Shown: positions 1,256-8,517 of the stretch, piece after piece
How the letters are laid out: each line of letters starts with the position of its first letter
Numbering within the stretch: the stretch's first letter is position 1
DNA from: a virus
Direction: 5' to 3' (one strand)
Virus genome (UHGV): UHGV-0090445
Length of the DNA: 40,035 bases
Notes under the pieces: generated by a model
Databases searched by the model: none
What the model saw: only the letters and a program-made list of their open reading frames with translations
Told to the model about the DNA's origin: nothing
Made by a program: the position numbers and the translations under genes

Positions 1256-3238
1256 TTAAGCGCTTGCAATAAAATCCATTTCGAATAGCTGTATTCTATC
1301 GTCTGTTATGTAGGCCTCGAAATATGTTCCATCATATGATGATAACTTAACTCCATTTATATGACCAGCATATGTATCATTGTGCATAATAATTAACTGC
1401 CCGTCACCCTTTCCTACATATTTGCACGTCCATGTCCCATTTGTTTTTGTGCTGTTAAGTAATGTAGTCGTTGACTGCACTCCATCCTTACATATTATAC
1501 CTTTTGCTTCATTTCCTATATACCTTATTCCAAAGTAATTTCCTGATTCCACGGAGCCACAAACTATAAAACCATTTAGTGAATTAACTCCAGATGTAAT
1601 TCCATAAGCAACAGCAAAACCAAGATAGTTAAATGTTTCATATTTTAATACAAGCCGTCGCTCTCTTTTATATCTTACAAGTGCCGTACCGCCAACAGTC
1701 CCCGCTCTTACAACTAATCCACCTTCTGCATAATATTCCAACCCTGAACCTGAGCCGGTTACTTTATTGGTAAATTTATCATAGTCTTGAAATTGAGTAT
1801 GGTGCCTTGTTGTCGCAAGCGTAAATGAAGATGTTACTCCATTAATTGATTTTGTAGCTGTTTCAGTTATAAGCCCTACCTGTACTCCATCAACCCTACT
1901 TTGCGCAACTTTACCAATGCACATACCAAAATCATTACCGATAATGATACCGCCTATCGAAACAGCAACCCAACTTTTTAGTGTGCCAGACATTGGCTTT
2001 AGCGCCTGTCCTATTCTTGTTGAGTTTGAGCTTAATACTCCTCCATGCTTTACAACCATCCCTTTATCATTAATTTCGTTACCGAAATCGCATGATTCAA
2101 CTGATATTGTACTATTATATGCCTCAATACACTTATCAACTCCTACCCCATTGAATGAACAATCATTAACAGCGCCAGATGTGCATCCATAAAATTCAAC
2201 TGAAGCATTTTCATCACTGTGTGTTCTATTTGTAAAGTTTAAAGCGTGCAACTCTGGGCTGTATGGTGTGCCTCCGCATGAAAATACCTGGGCTGACCTA
2301 ACATTAACTGTTGTTCTGTCGGTAGTTCTACTTACTATAACAATGTTTGCTTGTTGCGATGCGCCAGGTGGGAATAGAGGTGTGCACCCCCTCTTGCTTC
2401 TGATTACTATGTCTTCATCATAAGTTCCTGGTGCAATTGAGATAATAATTCTCTGCCAATAATTATTTGGGATATCGTCAATTGCTTCCTGAATGGTCCG
2501 GTAATCTTCCGGAACCATGAGTGTTACAGGCATCGTGTAAATACCCGCCACTGTTGACGAGTCAACGCCAAATGGATGGATGTAACCGCGATACGGATCA
2601 TTACCCCCGATAGTATTGATAAATCCTTCAATGCGTACTTTTGCTGAGTTAGTGTACAGATAACCACATTCACCAATATCTACGCGGAACTTCGCCGGGA
2701 TAGTCAGATCTTCTGTAAATTCCACTGGAACGTTGACAAAAACTCGTCCGTTACCAGAGGCGATGGCGCGTTTGAAAGCCTGCGTGTAGTCTGGAGCTGC
2801 TGGGTCTCCTGGCTCAACAAATGCGCGTAGGTCATAAAATCTTTCCTGCTGACCACCAGGGATTAAAAAACCTTTATCTCCTTCAAGCTCCTGCCTTAAC
2901 TGATCAGGGTCATACTTCAATACGTTTGGATAGTAAAATTGCTGTACGCCATATGCATCATATACAGCCATAGAATGGCCTTGCACAGTTACGAATTTGG
3001 CAATCTGTCCGTTATATACAGGATAACCAGCAGCGTTAATGATTATTGGTTGCGAAACAGGAACATGAGAACCATCTTCGTTTTCTACATAAACCTGAAT
3101 CTGGTTTTCAGGATTTACCGGGTCAGTGTCAATTTTACCGATATAAATTTTGCCATTGGCTACCGCTTTAAAAGAACGAGCCATAGTGAAGAGTTGCGAA
3201 GGCATCGATACGATCACATTGGCTGTAATGTCTGTCAT
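1256..3238 (-). CDS. Tailspike protein, P22 gp9 family (conserved N-terminal head-binding domain, divergent receptor-binding body)
   Basis: 660 aa; N-terminus [11 protein letters not shown]...[35 protein letters not shown]...[12 protein letters not shown] closely matches the remembered P22 tailspike head-binding domain; remainder is not P22-like. Confidence 0.9.
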
Positions 3239-3370
3239 TTAATTTGCTCCAGATACAAGGAATCACCGCAGCATGGCTACGGTTGGTGTTTGTTGCATAC
3301 CGAAATGGTACGATTGTTGATTTGTACAGTAGGTTTTACGATGCCATTCCACCCATTTGGTGAGGCATTG

Positions 3371-3628
3371 ATGATGTACAGCAAATACGATGAGGCGCAG
3401 TTCCACTTGAGGCTTACGCACGAGTTGCACGCTAAGATTAAGCAACGTGCAAAAATGAATAACAGGTCTATCAATTCCGAAATTGTGGCTACGATGGAAG
3501 AATCACTCTCCAAACCATCACCTGTAAGCGGGTATCGTGATGAAGAAGAGAGGCTGGCCTCATTAATCTCGGAACGAGTAAAAGAAGTTGTGGCTGATAT
3601 CCTTAGAAAAGAAAAAACCCGCGATTAA
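3371..3628 (+). CDS. Mnt-like ribbon-helix-helix repressor (second copy)
   Basis: Internal start of ORF 2939..3628 at ATG 3371 with SD GGTGAGG upstream; product ...NNRSINSEIVATMEESLSKPSPVSGYRDEEERLA... resembles P22 Mnt (NGRSMNSE...SKPSPVTGYRNDAERLA). The upstream part of the track ORF is antisense to the tailspike and rejected. Confidence 0.75.
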   Translation: MMYSKYDEAQFHLRLTHELHAKIKQRAKMNNRSINSEIVATMEESLSKPSPVSGYRDEEERLASLISERVKEVVADILRKEKTRD

Positions 3629-3636
3629 GCGGGTTT
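3605..3636 (-). terminator. Intrinsic terminator for the ant2-orf73 transcript (between convergent genes)
   Basis: Hairpin AAACCCGC-GATTAA-GCGGGTTT at 3615..3636; on the minus strand it is followed by a T-rich run (complement of 3604..3614). Confidence 0.45.
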
Positions 3637-3642
3637 AGTTGG

Positions 3643-3864
3643 TTAGTTATCAAAAAGTCCGTACGTTTCTTCTTCTTTAGGTGTAAGGGGAAGAATCTCT
3701 ACTCTATCTATAGATACCTTTTCAATGTACCCATGAGGTCTACTTAAAATTAAAGCTCTCTCATGCCACAGAACTCCAAGAATGTGATACCTTCCAGCAT
3801 CGCCTTTTACCCTGGCTCTTCCTTTGATTCTTGGCGGCATAATGCCATATTTTTTCTTTGCCAT
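3643..3864 (-). CDS. Hypothetical protein (73 aa), translationally coupled to upstream antirepressor gene
   Basis: ORF from track; its start overlaps the stop of the 3864..4643 ORF (ATGA); basic N-terminus MAKKKYG; no family recognised. Confidence 0.4.
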   Translation of the reverse strand: MAKKKYGIMPPRIKGRARVKGDAGRYHILGVLWHERALILSRPHGYIEKVSIDRVEILPLTPKEEETYGLFDN

Positions 3865-4592
3865 TATGCAACATTACTCCCATGAATCAGGTGTTGTAGT
3901 GCTTTAACACCCTCCGCATTGTAGCGGAATGCTTCCACCTGTTTGCTTGAATGCGCAGATTTATCCAAGAAGAACTTCCCGTACTGCTCAGTTTTGAGGT
4001 TGTTTGCGTTAGCAATGCGACCAATCTTGTTGGCCGTTACTCCAAGCTGCTCTGCAACCTCCCCTGCTGAGTAGTAATGCTCTTCTATTGCCGGAAGAGG
4101 TATTGCATTAAAACCAACGAGCGGGTTGATTATACTTGCTGCCGCTGTCTGCTTTGCCTCCGGCGCAAGATTTGGCATCAGATCGAACAGATTGGTAACA
4201 GCTTCAACCGTCATTTTCAATGTTCGCGCTTGACGATACTCAACAAGTCCACTCGCTGATTTACCGCTTTTAATGTGCGCTTCTTGCATACTTTCAAGTT
4301 GGTCTACCAGTGAGCGGCGAACGGCTTTTGACTCGCGAGCGGCAACTCGCAATGCTTGCTTGATTGACATCTCAATGATAACCATCGAAGTTTTGTTCGC
4401 TTTTTGCACTACACTTTTTGTGTAGTGCTCTCCATCCAATTCATCTTCAATTTTCTCGATGAATTTGTTATTACGAACCTCCGGCTCACCGCACTGTCTA
4501 CGAGCCTGATTTACCATCTCAAGCAGGCGCTGGCTGTCAATGGTTTTATCCGTGACAACGGATCCGATGTTTGCTACATTCTTAAAAGTCAT
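3864..4592 (-). CDS. Antirepressor-like protein (KilAC/ANT-like C-terminal region)
   Basis: Track ORF 3864..4643; likely start is ATG at 4592 (MTFKNVANIG...) with SD AAGGAA 6 nt upstream; C-terminal motif EVAEQLGVTANKIGRIANANNL resembles the KilAC/ANT region of the nin-region Rha protein in this window. Confidence 0.6.
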   Translation of the reverse strand: MTFKNVANIGSVVTDKTIDSQRLLEMVNQARRQCGEPEVRNNKFIEKIEDELDGEHYTKSVVQKANKTSMVIIEMSIKQALRVAARESKAVRRSLVDQLESMQEAHIKSGKSASGLVEYRQARTLKMTVEAVTNLFDLMPNLAPEAKQTAAASIINPLVGFNAIPLPAIEEHYYSAGEVAEQLGVTANKIGRIANANNLKTEQYGKFFLDKSAHSSKQVEAFRYNAEGVKALQHLIHGSNVA

Positions 4593-4661
4593 TAGGCATT
4601 CCTTATGTGGTAGTAAGGGTGTGACATAGGCCGCCAGCAGCACACTGGCGGTTTTCTTTTT
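4587..4661 (+). ncRNA. Candidate sar-like antisense RNA covering the ant2 translation start
   Basis: Plus-strand promoter-like -35 GTGACA (4552..4557), 17-nt spacer, -10 TACATT (4575..4580); strong intrinsic terminator CCGCCAG-cagcaca-CTGGCGG + TTTTCTTTTT at 4631..4661. No plus-strand gene precedes it; transcript would be antisense to the ant2 SD and start codon. Confidence 0.35.
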
Positions 4662-4680
4662 GCGCCGTCCGGCGCACCAA

Positions 4681-5403
4681 TCAATGAATCCATTCCTCGC
4701 CGCGAAGTTTTGCCAGCATTGGCTGAGCGTTCTTTACGACAAAATTGTTGGTATCAAGATTCTTCATTTCACGAAGAAGTGATTTCTTGGTTTCTTCTGA
4801 CATGTAGCGAGTCTCATATGCAATATCGTAAATCCTTCCTGAAAGCTCAGAACCAATTTGCTTCATTCCTGGGTAGATGTGTTTGCACATTTGTTGACTC
4901 TTCTCCATCCACAATTGTAAGTAGCAGAGATTAACCAGTTCTTCGTCAGTAAACTGTTTTGCAATCGGTGAGCATTCTGCCTGCCGATCCAAAATATCCA
5001 GCACCCAGCGGCGGAACTCTTTGGCCTTGGGCGTAGAAGCAAACATCGCCACCAAGTGAGCGCCTCGGAGCGAGTAAACTCTGACCGATTTGTTACGTAA
5101 GCTATTGTTTATTCCGTTGACCTTCATATTGAGGGTCAATGACATTGAGTCGGAAAATTCGTCAGCATTACGGGCATAAATTTGGCTGATGGCATCAGTT
5201 TTTTTATAGCCGAGAGCCTTAGCTAGTTCGGCGGAGGTGAACCAGATAGACCCGCCCTCTGTTACAGGGTTAAAAGTGAATCCTTGGAAGTTATAATCTG
5301 ATTTTGCTACAATATTCATGTTAGTTTCCTTGGGTACGGTTACTGACATAGAGGCCCGGTTTGTGTTCGCGCACTTCCGGGCTTCACTATTTTTACTGGG
5401 CAT
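4681..5403 (-). CDS. ant: Antirepressor with Bro-N domain
   Basis: Bro-N-like region FTFNPVTEGGSIWFTSAELAKALGYKK...VRVYSLRGAHLVAMFASTPKAKEFRRWVLDIL; start overlaps the Arc stop (coupling); position matches P22 immI arc-ant. Confidence 0.8.
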   Translation of the reverse strand: MPSKNSEARKCANTNRASMSVTVPKETNMNIVAKSDYNFQGFTFNPVTEGGSIWFTSAELAKALGYKKTDAISQIYARNADEFSDSMSLTLNMKVNGINNSLRNKSVRVYSLRGAHLVAMFASTPKAKEFRRWVLDILDRQAECSPIAKQFTDEELVNLCYLQLWMEKSQQMCKHIYPGMKQIGSELSGRIYDIAYETRYMSEETKKSLLREMKNLDTNNFVVKNAQPMLAKLRGEEWIH

Positions 5404-5584
5404 TAGCTCTTTCCTCTCTCAGGCTTTTAGCCAGTCGCTGCACAATCGCAGAGTTGATAGAAATTCCATCCATTTCAGCTACGCGTCTGATCTCCTCCTT
5501 CATTCGCGCTGGCAAACGAAGCTGGAAACTCTGACTTTTACGACCACTGTAAAGAACATCGCTCATCATCAATATCTCCGTCAT
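5393..5584 (-). CDS. arc: Arc-like ribbon-helix-helix repressor
   Basis: 63 aa; FQLRLPARMKEEIRRVAEMDGISINSAIVQRL resembles P22 Arc (FNLRWPREVLDLVRKVAEENGRSVNSEIYQRV). Confidence 0.8.
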   Translation of the reverse strand: MTEILMMSDVLYSGRKSQSFQLRLPARMKEEIRRVAEMDGISINSAIVQRLAKSLREERANAQ

Positions 5585-5585
5585 A

Positions 5586-5640
5586 ATGACATCACCGTGA
5601 TGTCATGACACCATTATGATGCCATTGCTCATAATGTCAA
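5586..5640. promoter_or_regulatory. immI control region: perfect 10-1-10 palindromic operator plus divergent Pant-like and Pmnt-like promoters
   Basis: ATGACATCAC-C-GTGATGTCAT at 5586..5606 immediately upstream of arc; minus-strand promoter -35 TTGACA (complement of 5635..5640), 17-nt spacer, -10 ATAATG (complement of 5612..5617); plus-strand -10 CATAAT near 5630..5635. Confidence 0.5.
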
Positions 5641-5689
5641 TATGATGCTACTGTGTTTTTTATTGCTCATATGCCTTGCGAATAAGAAA

Positions 5690-5941
5690 ATGTCAGAAAA
5701 AGACGAATCAAATTTCATAGAAAGATTTACGGTTAGAATGCCTGACGGCATGCGTAGTGCTATTGCGGAAAGGGCTAAACGAAACGGTCGATCTATGAAC
5801 TCAGAGATAGTTCAAATTCTTGAGGATGCGTTATCATCTGACGTCTCATCAGTAGACAAATCATTAGATCTTAAACAAATAAAATCTTTACTTGATAAAA
5901 TTTCCAACGAGTTACTGGATAGAATCCCAAAAGACACATAA
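5690..5941 (+). CDS. mnt: Mnt/Arc-family ribbon-helix-helix repressor, divergent from arc-ant
   Basis: Internal start at ATG 5690 of ORF 5642..5941; FTVRMPDGMRSAIAERAKRNGRSMNSEIVQILEDAL is an RHH motif; placement and orientation match P22 mnt. Confidence 0.7.
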   Translation: MSEKDESNFIERFTVRMPDGMRSAIAERAKRNGRSMNSEIVQILEDALSSDVSSVDKSLDLKQIKSLLDKISNELLDRIPKDT

Positions 5942-5991
5942 CAAAACATTATCATCCGGTGTTCTGCTCAAAACTAAGGAGTGGCTACTCA

Positions 5992-6630
5992 ATGAAAAAA
6001 ATAGATATATATAGCGATACATCAGCCTATGTCATAGGCTCATTGGGTTTTTTAATTTTTTTTGTTTGGCAGTACCAGTCACTATCTCCAGGATGGCGAT
6101 TTTTTGGGATGTCTTTGATATCACTTGGTGCAGGAATAGCAACGCAGGTGTTGATGTATCTCTTTAATGGATGGCTCTCAAAAAGAGTTGAGAAAAAAAG
6201 AGCTACTTCAATATGTAGAAGCCTAGCTATTCCAGAAGACTCTACAGATCAGGATGATATTGCAAAATGTTGGCGGTATATGATTGCAAGATACTCAAAT
6301 GAGTTACTGGCAAACAGACTGTCCGACTTAATCGGGGTCGTAGTTACCTCTGTTGGAACAATCATCAGTATAGGGATATCAATTTGGTATGTCGGGATGA
6401 TTGTCTATTTTGTTTGGAATAGAGACTTCAATGAACCTTCCCTTCTTTTTATACCTTTATTTTTCAGGGTATTAGCATTCATATGTGAGTTATTGCTCTC
6501 TTTTTTCTGCAATGTTTTGTTCAACAGATACCCAGGTGAAGCAAGAAAGTTTAATAAAAACTATGATGAGTTAAGGAGAACAGATCCTTTTCTATCAAGT
6601 AAAGAGTTCCGCGATTCCATTCGCAATTAA
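5992..6630 (+). CDS. AT-rich predicted 4-TM inner-membrane protein at the SieA position (candidate superinfection exclusion protein)
   Basis: Start ATG 5992 with SD AAGGAG (5977..5982); four hydrophobic segments; AT-rich by eye; sits between mnt and the gp16 homolog as sieA does in P22. Homology to SieA not verifiable here. Confidence 0.65.
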   Translation: MKKIDIYSDTSAYVIGSLGFLIFFVWQYQSLSPGWRFFGMSLISLGAGIATQVLMYLFNGWLSKRVEKKRATSICRSLAIPEDSTDQDDIAKCWRYMIARYSNELLANRLSDLIGVVVTSVGTIISIGISIWYVGMIVYFVWNRDFNEPSLLFIPLFFRVLAFICELLLSFFCNVLFNRYPGEARKFNKNYDELRRTDPFLSSKEFRDSIRN

Positions 6631-6651
6631 CAACATCCATGACATCAACCC

Positions 6652-8517
6652 TTAGCGATCAGTTGCATCATTGGCAAGTATTGGTCTGATGGCATTTGCG
6701 GCGTTATTCAGCGCTCTTTCATAAGCTGGCGTTCCAGCTTTAGTGTTTGCCAGACGTAAGAGCGCATTCCTAGCCATAGGGCTTTCATAAACCCTCGACA
6801 TAAGGCCAATCCCTGTTTCCCCAGCCAATAGCGCGCCTCCGGTTTTTAGGTTACCAATAACCCTTACCAAAGGCGCGAGTGTCATGCCAGTCTTCGTCAC
6901 AACATTAGCCTCAGATGCTCTTTTGGTAGCATCGAGAATAGATAACATCCCCTCTATCTCTTTTCCGTTCTTCCCACCAAATACAGTTTTAAACACCTGA
7001 CCATTTGCTTGTTTTTGCAGCTTGCCAAGCTCGGTCATCATTTTCTGAGGGCTGTCACCTACCTTGTCAGCTATTTTGCTGATATATGCCGCCCTTAGCA
7101 TGTCTTTACCTTTTTGATCGAGTTTCCCGTACAATCGAGCTATATCTGACCCATATTGTCCATACACAATGGTATTTACAGCCTCGGGAGTTAAATCTCC
7201 TTTGTTTAGAACGTTTTTAAGGCGCGTTTGAGTTGCATGTGTTGCCATTTTTGCATAATCAGCTTTTCCCGCCCTCCATGCTGAAGCATCTTTTGGGCTA
7301 AGTCCTTTCGCTATAGATTTACTAAGGCTATTGGTTAGCGAGTTGTAGACCCTGTCGACCATTGTTTGCGACATTGATGGCAGAACTGTACGATCGCCTT
7401 TTACGTCAATGCGGAACTGAGTTCTCAGCTTATCAAGTAACTCAAAGGCATCATCTCCATTTGTTATCTCCTGAATGGCATTCTTATAATCATTAAGCGC
7501 AGAAATGGTCTGGGTGTCAGAAACACCTTTAAGTTTCCCAAGTTCGTTTACTGCTCCGTCGATAGCTCTTATGGCGCCACTTGTATCAACTGGCTTTCCA
7601 ACCATTCTTCCTGACAGGTTGTTTAGTTTTGACTTGGCTAACGATTTTTCCCTTGCAACGCCTGACTTTAGACTATCAACGACTACAGATGGATCGTAGT
7701 CGCCGTATTTTTCGGTGAAGCGATTAACAAGCTTGGTTCTAGCATCCTGCTGTGCGGCTCTCATTGGTCCAGTCCCAGCTATGACTCCTTCTGAGTAACC
7801 CTGCAGTTGATTGCCAAGTTTTGTTTTTGGAGGAACTACATCCGATGTCATAACTGGTACATCTGCCGCAGCGGCACGCTTGAGCAATTGCTGATCTGCT
7901 GGTGATATTTCGCCACGAACAGCAGTAATTCCACGCCCTATTCCCTTTGCTGCTGCGGAAAGAACCCCCTGAGCGGCAAGGTTAACTCCGGCATTTTTAG
8001 CTGCATTTTGTGCGAAATCGCCTTTCTGATTTGCGGCTTCTGCCAGTGATCCAATAGCCATGCTTCCTGCCGTTCCAACTCCTGGAACTAAATACCCGCC
8101 AATTGTTTCTCCAGCTTGAGCGTAGGGGTCTGTCGGTCGATCGACTGGACGATAGACATCATCCAATACTTTTGGCCCACCAAGCCCCTGGCTGATTGCA
8201 TTAATCAGACTTGCGCCACCCTGCAATACGTCAAATGGTATGTTTACCAGACCACGACCAGCCTGCTCTGCAATTTGCCCTGCACTTTGACCACCAGTGA
8301 GCCAATCGCCAGCTTGTTGCATCAATGATGGTTCTTCTTTCTGCTGCTGAGTCGGAGGGTATGCTGCATAAAACTGATCTCTTGCTTCAGCCCATTTGTC
8401 ACCAGCCTTAGGAGCAACAACCTCATCAAAATATTGCGCTTGAGCCTGTGCTTTCTGTTCTTCAGTTAACGCCTGATACTGTGGAGAGGCGATAACATCT
8501 TTCCATGCTTTAGCCAT
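6652..8517 (-). CDS. Ejection (DNA-transfer) protein, P22 gp16-like
   Basis: 621 aa (P22 gp16 about 609 aa); gene order gp7-gp20-gp16 ahead of immI/tailspike; Ala/Gly-rich. Confidence 0.8.
   Translation of the reverse strand: MAKAWKDVIASPQYQALTEEQKAQAQAQYFDEVVAPKAGDKWAEARDQFYAAYPPTQQQKEEPSLMQQAGDWLTGGQSAGQIAEQAGRGLVNIPFDVLQGGASLINAISQGLGGPKVLDDVYRPVDRPTDPYAQAGETIGGYLVPGVGTAGSMAIGSLAEAANQKGDFAQNAAKNAGVNLAAQGVLSAAAKGIGRGITAVRGEISPADQQLLKRAAAADVPVMTSDVVPPKTKLGNQLQGYSEGVIAGTGPMRAAQQDARTKLVNRFTEKYGDYDPSVVVDSLKSGVAREKSLAKSKLNNLSGRMVGKPVDTSGAIRAIDGAVNELGKLKGVSDTQTISALNDYKNAIQEITNGDDAFELLDKLRTQFRIDVKGDRTVLPSMSQTMVDRVYNSLTNSLSKSIAKGLSPKDASAWRAGKADYAKMATHATQTRLKNVLNKGDLTPEAVNTIVYGQYGSDIARLYGKLDQKGKDMLRAAYISKIADKVGDSPQKMMTELGKLQKQANGQVFKTVFGGKNGKEIEGMLSILDATKRASEANVVTKTGMTLAPLVRVIGNLKTGGALLAGETGIGLMSRVYESPMARNALLRLANTKAGTPAYERALNNAANAIRPILANDATDR

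Follow-up and report, generated by a model that had tools for sequence, protein, structure and literature searches.

The palindrome at 5586-5606 is most likely an operator of the O_mnt type, a known kind of element, here with what appears to be a new DNA specificity. The window, meaning the whole stretch of 40,035 nucleotides that was analysed, comes from a P22-like E. coli prophage, and the palindrome lies in the gap between the arc-ant operon and a divergent RHH gene. We argue that it is the strongest of three related sites (O1, O2 and O3) for the RHH repressor encoded at 5690-5941, and that this repressor corresponds to P22 Mnt in position and function. We consider this reading probable from comparisons among related loci, in which the sites covary with the beta-strand of the Mnt-like protein.

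Table 1. Coordinates of the features in and around the divergent gap, with P22 counterparts numbered as in the original immI record (X01916)
Feature	Position	Strand	Description	P22 counterpart
Small ORF	3643-3864	-
Second anti-repressor-family gene	3864-4592	-	phrog_1726 anti-repressor, 5e-101; downstream, same orientation
Antirepressor gene (ant)	4681-5319	-	regulated cargo; Bro-N + P22_AR_C; phrog_245 anti-repressor Ant, 2.9e-50
Arc-like RHH gene	5393-5569	-	first gene of the operon; Pfam Arc 8.7e-12; best PDB relatives are P22 Arc entries
O1	5586-5606		reported palindrome; about +1 to +21 of the predicted arc-ant promoter; O_mnt-like position	O_mnt, 337-353, AGGTCCACGGTGGACCT
O2	5605-5625		ATGACAcCAT-T-ATGATGcCAT; 2 mismatches to the O1 pattern; covers the predicted arc-ant -10
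Pant-like promoter (predicted)	5640-5613	-	TTGACA 5640-5635, N16, CATAAT 5618-5613; 11/12 consensus matches	Pant -35, 302-307 (window 5640-5635); Pant -10, 325-330 (window 5618-5613)
Candidate Arc-like operator	5623-5636		CATT-N6-AATG in the Pant spacer; half-site spacing as in P22 O_arc (TAGA-N6-TCTA)	O_arc, 308-328, ATGATAGAAGCACTCTACTAT (window: candidate only)
Best candidate mnt-side promoter	5625-5654	+	TTGCTC 5625-5630, N18, TG(5646-5647)-c-TACTGT 5649-5654; putative start ~5661
Alternative mnt-side promoter called by the scan	5619-5646	+	ATGCCA 5619-5624, N16, TATGAT 5641-5646; 9/12
O3 (degenerate)	~5631-5651		ATAATGTCAATATGATGCTAC; overlaps both predicted divergent promoters
Divergent Mnt-like RHH repressor gene	5690-5941	+	83 aa; beta-strand ERFTVRMP; C-terminal helix; proposed O1-O3 binder
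SieA-like membrane protein gene	5992-6630	+

Three related sites across two predicted divergent promoters

A 21-bp palindrome had been reported here by the first-pass annotation, and it is present. The sequence ATGACATCACCGTGATGTCAT consists of two perfectly complementary 10-bp arms, ATGACATCAC and GTGATGTCAT, around a single central C. It is the longest palindrome of the window and the only one with arms of at least 9 bp and a loop of at most 1. Its length alone is weakly significant, because first-order Markov simulation of the window, run 300 times, gave an arm of at least 10 bp somewhere in 23 cases (7.7%). The weight is carried by the location in a divergent intergenic gap of about 120 bp between two RHH genes.

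The palindrome is perfect in this window but not elsewhere. All 15 other copies examined have A rather than G at 5597 (six E. coli replicons, L001 and L102-L106, and nine viral contigs, L007-L015), and two of these also have T at 5596. The near-identical copy in strain AR_0058 differs from the window over 581 bp only in the change of G5597 to A. None of the 24 complete E. coli genomes carrying the region is 100% identical to the window over 5560-5700. The centre reads TTT or CTT in more distant relatives. Judged from these copies, the perfect symmetry is due to a rare allele at one base, conservation does not extend to the three central bases, and the conserved unit is ATGACATCA-N3-TGATGTCAT (9-N3-9). 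The central three bases are probably uncontacted. A search of IMG/VR for the exact 21-mer gave no match, but this is because every other copy has A at 5597, so it is not proof of uniqueness.

The same annotation treated the palindrome as a lone operator. The site exists, but it is one of three. When the pattern ATGACATCANNNTGATGTCAT (18 specified bases) is searched with up to 3 mismatches it matches the window twice, at O1 and O2, against an expectation of 0.02. Window-wide searches with the half-sites ATGACATCAC and CATCANNNTGATG, each with at most one mismatch, gave counts that were not above chance. The full 21-mer pattern is informative and the half-site searches are not. O2 abuts O1 with a 2-bp overlap, and it is the O2 position, not O1, that carries the perfect palindrome in relatives L021, L025 and L035. 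O3 has a good half-site on the right, TGATGCTA, and on the left it consists of the -35 TTGACA itself. O3 is invariant across the 17 class-A (ERFTVRMP) sequences, and between Mnt classes its right half varies in unchanged columns.

The three sites are spaced at 19 and 26 bp, and the distance between the O1 and O2 centres is 19 bp in the window and 18 bp in relatives. Neither O1-O2 distance corresponds to a whole number of helical turns, and cooperative binding of two tetramers on the same face is therefore not obvious. The half-site centres would fall near 5591, 5601, 5610 and 5620, at intervals of 9-10 bp, a spacing that by analogy recalls RHH proteins on site arrays.

The predicted arc-ant promoter agrees with what had been claimed for it. 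The TTGACA-N17-ATAATG noted earlier is the Pant-like promoter of Table 1 shifted by one base, and the scan scores it near consensus. The palindrome was also said to lie at the predicted arc-ant start, and 7 nt past the -10 is 5606, its first base on that strand. The -35 is conserved in most beta-strand classes. We infer that this promoter drives the arc-like gene, ant and the second anti-repressor gene.

The earlier plus-strand promoter, with a -35 overlapping the palindrome, does not hold up. Its elements, ATGACA at 5605-5610 and CATAAT at 5630-5635, pair only across a 19-bp spacer, and the scan is silent on them. The proposed -10 is not conserved either, since 11 of the 17 closest relatives have G at its second position. 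The best candidate for the mnt-side promoter has its -10 further along, at 5649-5654. The TA...T there and the TG before it are invariant in the 17 class-A sequences, and the same columns read TACAAT, TATTGT, TATCAT, CATAAT or CATGAT in other classes, so they are -10-like in most classes. Both ATGACA-N19-CATAAT and the scan's ATGCCA-N16-TATGAT are disfavoured because only TTGCTC-N18-TGcTACTGT has a -10 conserved class-wide. The divergent promoters would then have interdigitating -35 regions and starts about 55 bp apart.

Which protein probably reads the sites

The relevant comparison is between prophages that have exchanged one protein but not the others. In nineteen further E. coli genomes, similarity to the window continues through arc at 91-93% identity and breaks off at 5579-5589, which is the left edge of O1. 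Between the window and E. coli 55989 the Arc-like protein is identical at 55 of 57 residues (96%) with the same beta-strand, and the second Mnt-like protein, encoded at 3341-3628, is identical at 83 of 84. The divergent Mnt-like proteins are identical at 33 of 45 residues in the RHH domain and their tails are unrelated. The N-arm and strand read SNFIERFTVRMP in the window versus SHEMDRFNIRLP in 55989, which takes ERFTVRMP to DRFNIRLP. The intergenic sites of 55989 are of the CCAA/TTGG type in place of the CATCA/TGATG type, and all the repeated sites are changed. The sites swap with the divergent Mnt-like gene and not with the Arc-like or the second Mnt-like gene, which points to the divergent Mnt-like protein as the probable partner.

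The same pattern holds across a wider family. Aligning the upstream regions of 94 loci that encode relatives of the Mnt-like protein, with the common -35 as anchor, gave 55 distinct sequences. These make up about ten beta-strand classes, each with its own repeated half-site at three common positions. The site centres fall near columns 24-26, 42-43 and 69 in every class (column 1 is window 5573). The ERFTVRMP class of this window has the half-site motif CATCA-N3-TGATG, DRFN(I/V)RLP has CCAA-N-TTGG, DKFM(L/V)RFP has TCAC-N-GTGA, EKFVVRFP has GGCAT/ATGCC and DKFTVRFP has AGGCA/TTGCC. De novo 5-mer counts agree with this. CATCA has a frequency of 4.7 per 68 bp in the ERFTVRMP class and of at most 2.0 in every other, and ACCAA is confined to the DRFN classes, with 3-4 occurrences. 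The ERFTVRMP class has 17 distinct sequences from several enterobacterial genera, including Yersinia, Klebsiella and Lonsdalea contigs. Within it the CATCA-N3-TGATG cores are kept, and the central three bases and the flanks diverge.

The divergent protein has the features of such a repressor. Its match to the Pfam Arc family (PF03869) has an E-value of 1.4e-17 and scores 63.7 bits against a cut-off of 20.4, which makes it a member of the RHH proteins. Against the PDB it matches Mnt (1mnt) at 2.5e-7 and AmrZ (3qoq) at 7e-8, the latter being the best match by sequence to a solved structure. Its RHH domain is 55% identical to that of P22 Mnt. The AlphaFold2 monomer has helices at residues 21-32 and 36-50 and a separate C-terminal one at 61-77, with a mean pLDDT of 74.6. 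Sequence comparison found no similarity between the C-terminal tail and the tetramerisation domain of P22 Mnt. The tail is kept across proteins of different strand classes. Together these features suggest an exchangeable oligomerisation module like that of P22 Mnt but unrelated to it in sequence; with a tail so unlike that of P22 Mnt, a tetramer held by a C-terminal coiled-coil is a guess.

Some observations on this gene bear on its annotation. A 99-aa version starting at an ATG at 5642 is predicted by some gene callers, but the extension is not conserved in relatives. PGAP calls it a pseudogene ('missing C-terminus') in related genomes despite an intact 83-aa ORF and a conserved tail, so that a functional-looking gene is carried as a pseudogene fragment. 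P0015 is a natural chimera, with the N-terminus of the second Mnt-like type and a C-terminal tail of the 5690-5941 type.

One can imagine that the Arc-like protein instead uses the palindrome as its operator and so autoregulates the arc-ant operon. The palindrome adjoins the arc-like gene, and the same promoter in P22 is autoregulated by Arc, an RHH repressor (PMC11016777). The first-pass annotation called the element an Arc/Mnt-type operator and left the binder open. A switch control region of the P22-immI type is borne out, but the module swap argues against the Arc-like protein as binder. Its strand SFQLRLP is constant over three Mnt classes with wholly different sites, and the 55989-type prophage has an Arc-like protein 96% identical to this one without any CATCA-type site. 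The position is also wrong, since P22 O_arc is between the -35 and the -10 and not at +1. It must be noted that in one locus, L090 from Pectobacterium polonicum, the Arc-like and Mnt-like proteins share the strand KFMLR, which makes shared sites possible in some phages. The L090 sites (TCAC-N-GTGA) are almost unchanged relative to those of L006 (listed alongside L055), whose Arc-like strand is SFQLR. Judged from the strands, both repressors may read common sites in phages such as L090. For the window we consider the Arc-like protein improbable as the reader of the palindrome, though it is the best of the alternatives.

If the Arc-like protein has an operator of its own it should be conserved across Mnt classes that have a common Arc-like strand. 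A search on this basis turned up only the CATT-N6-AATG of Table 1. It is kept in classes A and B, in which the Arc-like strand is SFQLRLP, and is altered in L054, in which the strand is VFNLRLP. However, the Arc strand of L090 differs and its spacer is almost unchanged. We put forward CATT-N6-AATG as the Arc-like operator with low confidence.

The second Mnt-like protein is a better match to P22 Mnt and could be thought the true binder. It is the closer full-length homologue, with 48% identity over 73 residues including the C-terminal tetramerisation region, and recombinants between the two Mnt-like types exist, such as P0015. But it is nearly unchanged in the 55989 prophage, whose sites differ entirely, and its strand, QFHLRL, is unlike that of the divergent gene. 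This makes it very unlikely that it reads the palindrome. The protein is 99% conserved in prophages of different immI specificity, and nothing convincing in the way of an operator-like palindrome was found upstream of its gene (3180-3345). The gene, on the plus strand, is convergent with the end of the ant operon and sits beside an HNH gene and the tailspike; in JEP4 it is annotated 'regulatory protein mnt'. The lesson for annotation is that the positional 'mnt' is not the closest homologue of P22 Mnt, and the second Mnt-like gene is.

A role in RNA has just as little probability. The palindrome would be transcribed from about +1 and could form a 9-bp hairpin of -9.7 kcal/mol at the 5' end of the arc-ant mRNA, for stabilisation, attenuation or masking of translation. 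This fold is not exceptional (z = -0.29), with an equally good fold in 72 of 200 shuffles. The stem is not followed by a U-run, no terminator was called in 5300-6000 and there is no Rfam match. The Shine-Dalgarno sequence GGAG (5576-5573) is outside the stem. The motif is also repeated at O2 and O3, upstream of the start and outside the arc-ant transcript, which argues that it acts as DNA and not as RNA.

The weakest alternative is that the palindrome is due to chance or a by-product of local repeats with no function of its own, as its frequency in simulated windows and its rare tenth base pair might allow, but it is hard to credit for a 9-N3-9 unit that is conserved across genera, repeated next door well beyond expectation and covarying with the adjacent repressor.

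The prophage and the proposed switch

The window is a P22-like E. coli prophage with a tailspike, ejection proteins, a SieA-like gene, and an arc-like and two anti-repressor genes opposite an Arc-family gene. The SieA-like and mnt-like genes are on the plus strand and the arc-like gene, ant and ant2 on the minus strand, followed by the tailspike; the ejection proteins are on the other side. The repressor gene diverges from the arc-ant operon, as in the 'ant moron' of P22-like phages. The Arc-like gene encodes 57-58 aa from an ATG ATG at 5569/5566 behind the Shine-Dalgarno sequence, and PGAP uses the 57-aa form. In AR_0058 the neighbours of this region are the integrase IntS, a tailspike, gp16-type ejection proteins and gp10. 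Of 5426 complete E. coli genomes, at least 24 carry the region. Variability is high in the ant moron, or immI, of P22-like phages, and the P22 version alone has been studied (PMC2629481, the epsilon34 genome paper).

Some related records are worth describing. NZ_CP146561.1 and NZ_CP146567.1 (L102) are 39.9-kb circular 'plasmid' records from hospital-wastewater E. coli that carry the region; rather than plasmids, they probably represent the phage genome in circular or excised form. In Escherichia phage JEP4 (L107, 4590-5504; window ~5399 onward) both anti-repressor genes are 96% identical to those of the window. From the arc stop codon onward the first gene of JEP4 is a different one, small and RHH-like, and in place of the Mnt-like gene there is a repressor gene of the C2/CI type. 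This layout implies that the antirepressor cargo can be driven by unrelated control modules.

Two other structures in the region were noted. A palindrome on the plus strand at 6024-6040, AGCCTATG-T-CATAGGCT, has 8-bp arms and is the window's next-longest, with GGGTTTTTTAATTTTTTTTG within 7 nt after it. It is 83 bp past the stop codon of the mnt-like gene, where it could terminate the mnt-side transcript, although this is within the predicted SieA-like ORF. On the other side there is a possible plus-strand promoter, TTAAAA-N16-TATAAT at 5270-5297 (10/12). A transcript from it would cross the ant start codon (5319-5317) and its Shine-Dalgarno sequence and end at a strong hairpin at 5351-5385, with UUCACUAUUUUU after it; folding of 5294-5400 gives z = -3.5. 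A sar-like antisense RNA from the plus strand of 5270-5400 is possible on these features. No Rfam family, sar included, was found in 3000-6700 at E <=1.

The mechanism we propose is as follows. In a lysogen the Mnt-like protein would be made from a weak promoter with its -10 at about 5649-5654. It would probably be a dimer of dimers joined by the C-terminal helix. Two dimers would sit on the half-sites ATGACATCA and TGATGTCAT, at +1 to +21 of the strong arc-ant promoter. Occupancy of O2 would extend the complex over the -10, so that RNA polymerase is excluded and both antirepressor genes stay silent. Since the divergent promoters overlap, the mnt-side promoter should, as in P22, become available once the arc-ant promoter is silenced. 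At high repressor levels O3, over the arc-ant -35 and the mnt-side spacer and -10, would give negative autoregulation.

The layout itself could be a new variant, in which three sites are combined with the exchange of arm, strand and sites as a cassette. Multi-site Mnt-type operators or this module were not described in the literature searched, which covered few of the 1980s P22 papers. We suggest, tentatively and at somewhat less than even confidence, that this is an undescribed and widespread layout of enterobacterial phages. It would have three sites, or six half-sites, over both promoters, with N-arm, beta-strand and the three sites exchanged as an immunity cassette on a near-constant scaffold. 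If that is true the roughly ten strand and half-site pairs amount to a recognition table for RHH proteins and an orthogonal set of repressors and operators. In the related loci helices A and B are near constant and the N-arm, beta-strand and half-sites change together. Such covarying loci can be mined for rules of RHH DNA recognition and for orthogonal repressor/operator parts. If the operator is confirmed, it defines the specificity of the secondary (immI-type) control of this prophage. That specificity decides which co-resident or superinfecting phages derepress each other through their antirepressors.

Comparison with P22 and other repressor systems

The closest known system is Mnt and O_mnt of P22. 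In both, an RHH gene diverges from arc-ant, a two-fold symmetric operator of odd length lies at +1 of a strong TTGACA promoter, and the repressor has an RHH domain followed by a C-terminal helix. The distance from the operator centre to the first base of the -35 is 43 bp in P22 and 44 bp in the window (centre 5596, -35 start 5640). This geometry places the palindrome in the O_mnt position and not that of O_arc.

The specificity is where the two part. The first-pass annotation had expected a specificity different from P22 from the operator sequence, and we agree. P22 O_mnt is 17 bp whereas ATGACATCA-N3-TGATGTCAT is 21 bp, and the two have in common only a central CAC-N-GTG that is not conserved in the window's relatives. 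The recognition residues of the strand are H6, N8 and R10 in P22 and R, T and R in the window protein. Since both operator and recognition residues are unlike those of P22, they belong to a different specificity class. P22 has one GGTCCAC/GTGGACC pair in the region, whereas the window and all related classes have three related sites, and the mnt-side promoter is apparently placed differently in the window.

The Arc-like protein has the same fold as P22 Arc and is in the same operon, as its first gene, with a possible spacer site at the O_arc position. O_arc lies between the -35 and -10, whereas the window palindrome is downstream of the -10 and shows no covariation with the Arc-like protein. 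P22 Mnt is the repressor of arc and ant; P22 Arc keeps ant and mnt expression down, and the ant mRNA is the pairing target of sar RNA (PMC11016777). For Kapi1, a related E. coli phage, lysogens are reported not to express the annotated mnt (PMC12922286), so the P22 logic may not transfer fully.

Other RHH repressors offer a partial parallel. Recognition by these proteins is through a two-stranded beta-sheet (PMC3413123). The window would share with AmrZ and with MetJ, CopG, omega and ParG both this beta-sheet recognition and the placing of several dimers side by side. These are not antirepressor switches, and simultaneous binding of four dimers in the window is a guess by analogy. MetJ, CopG, omega and ParG are RHH repressors that act on arrays of tandem sites.

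The immC region of lambda and P22 has tripartite operators, OR1-OR2-OR3, between divergent promoters. The likeness here is one of analogy and not homology. The immC repressors are HTH proteins and that of the window is RHH. The sites of the window also abut or overlap, at 19- and 26-bp spacing. Even so, in both cases three unequal sites lie across two divergent overlapping promoters with the repressor gene on one side, and in both the repressor and its operators appear to be exchanged whole as an immunity module.
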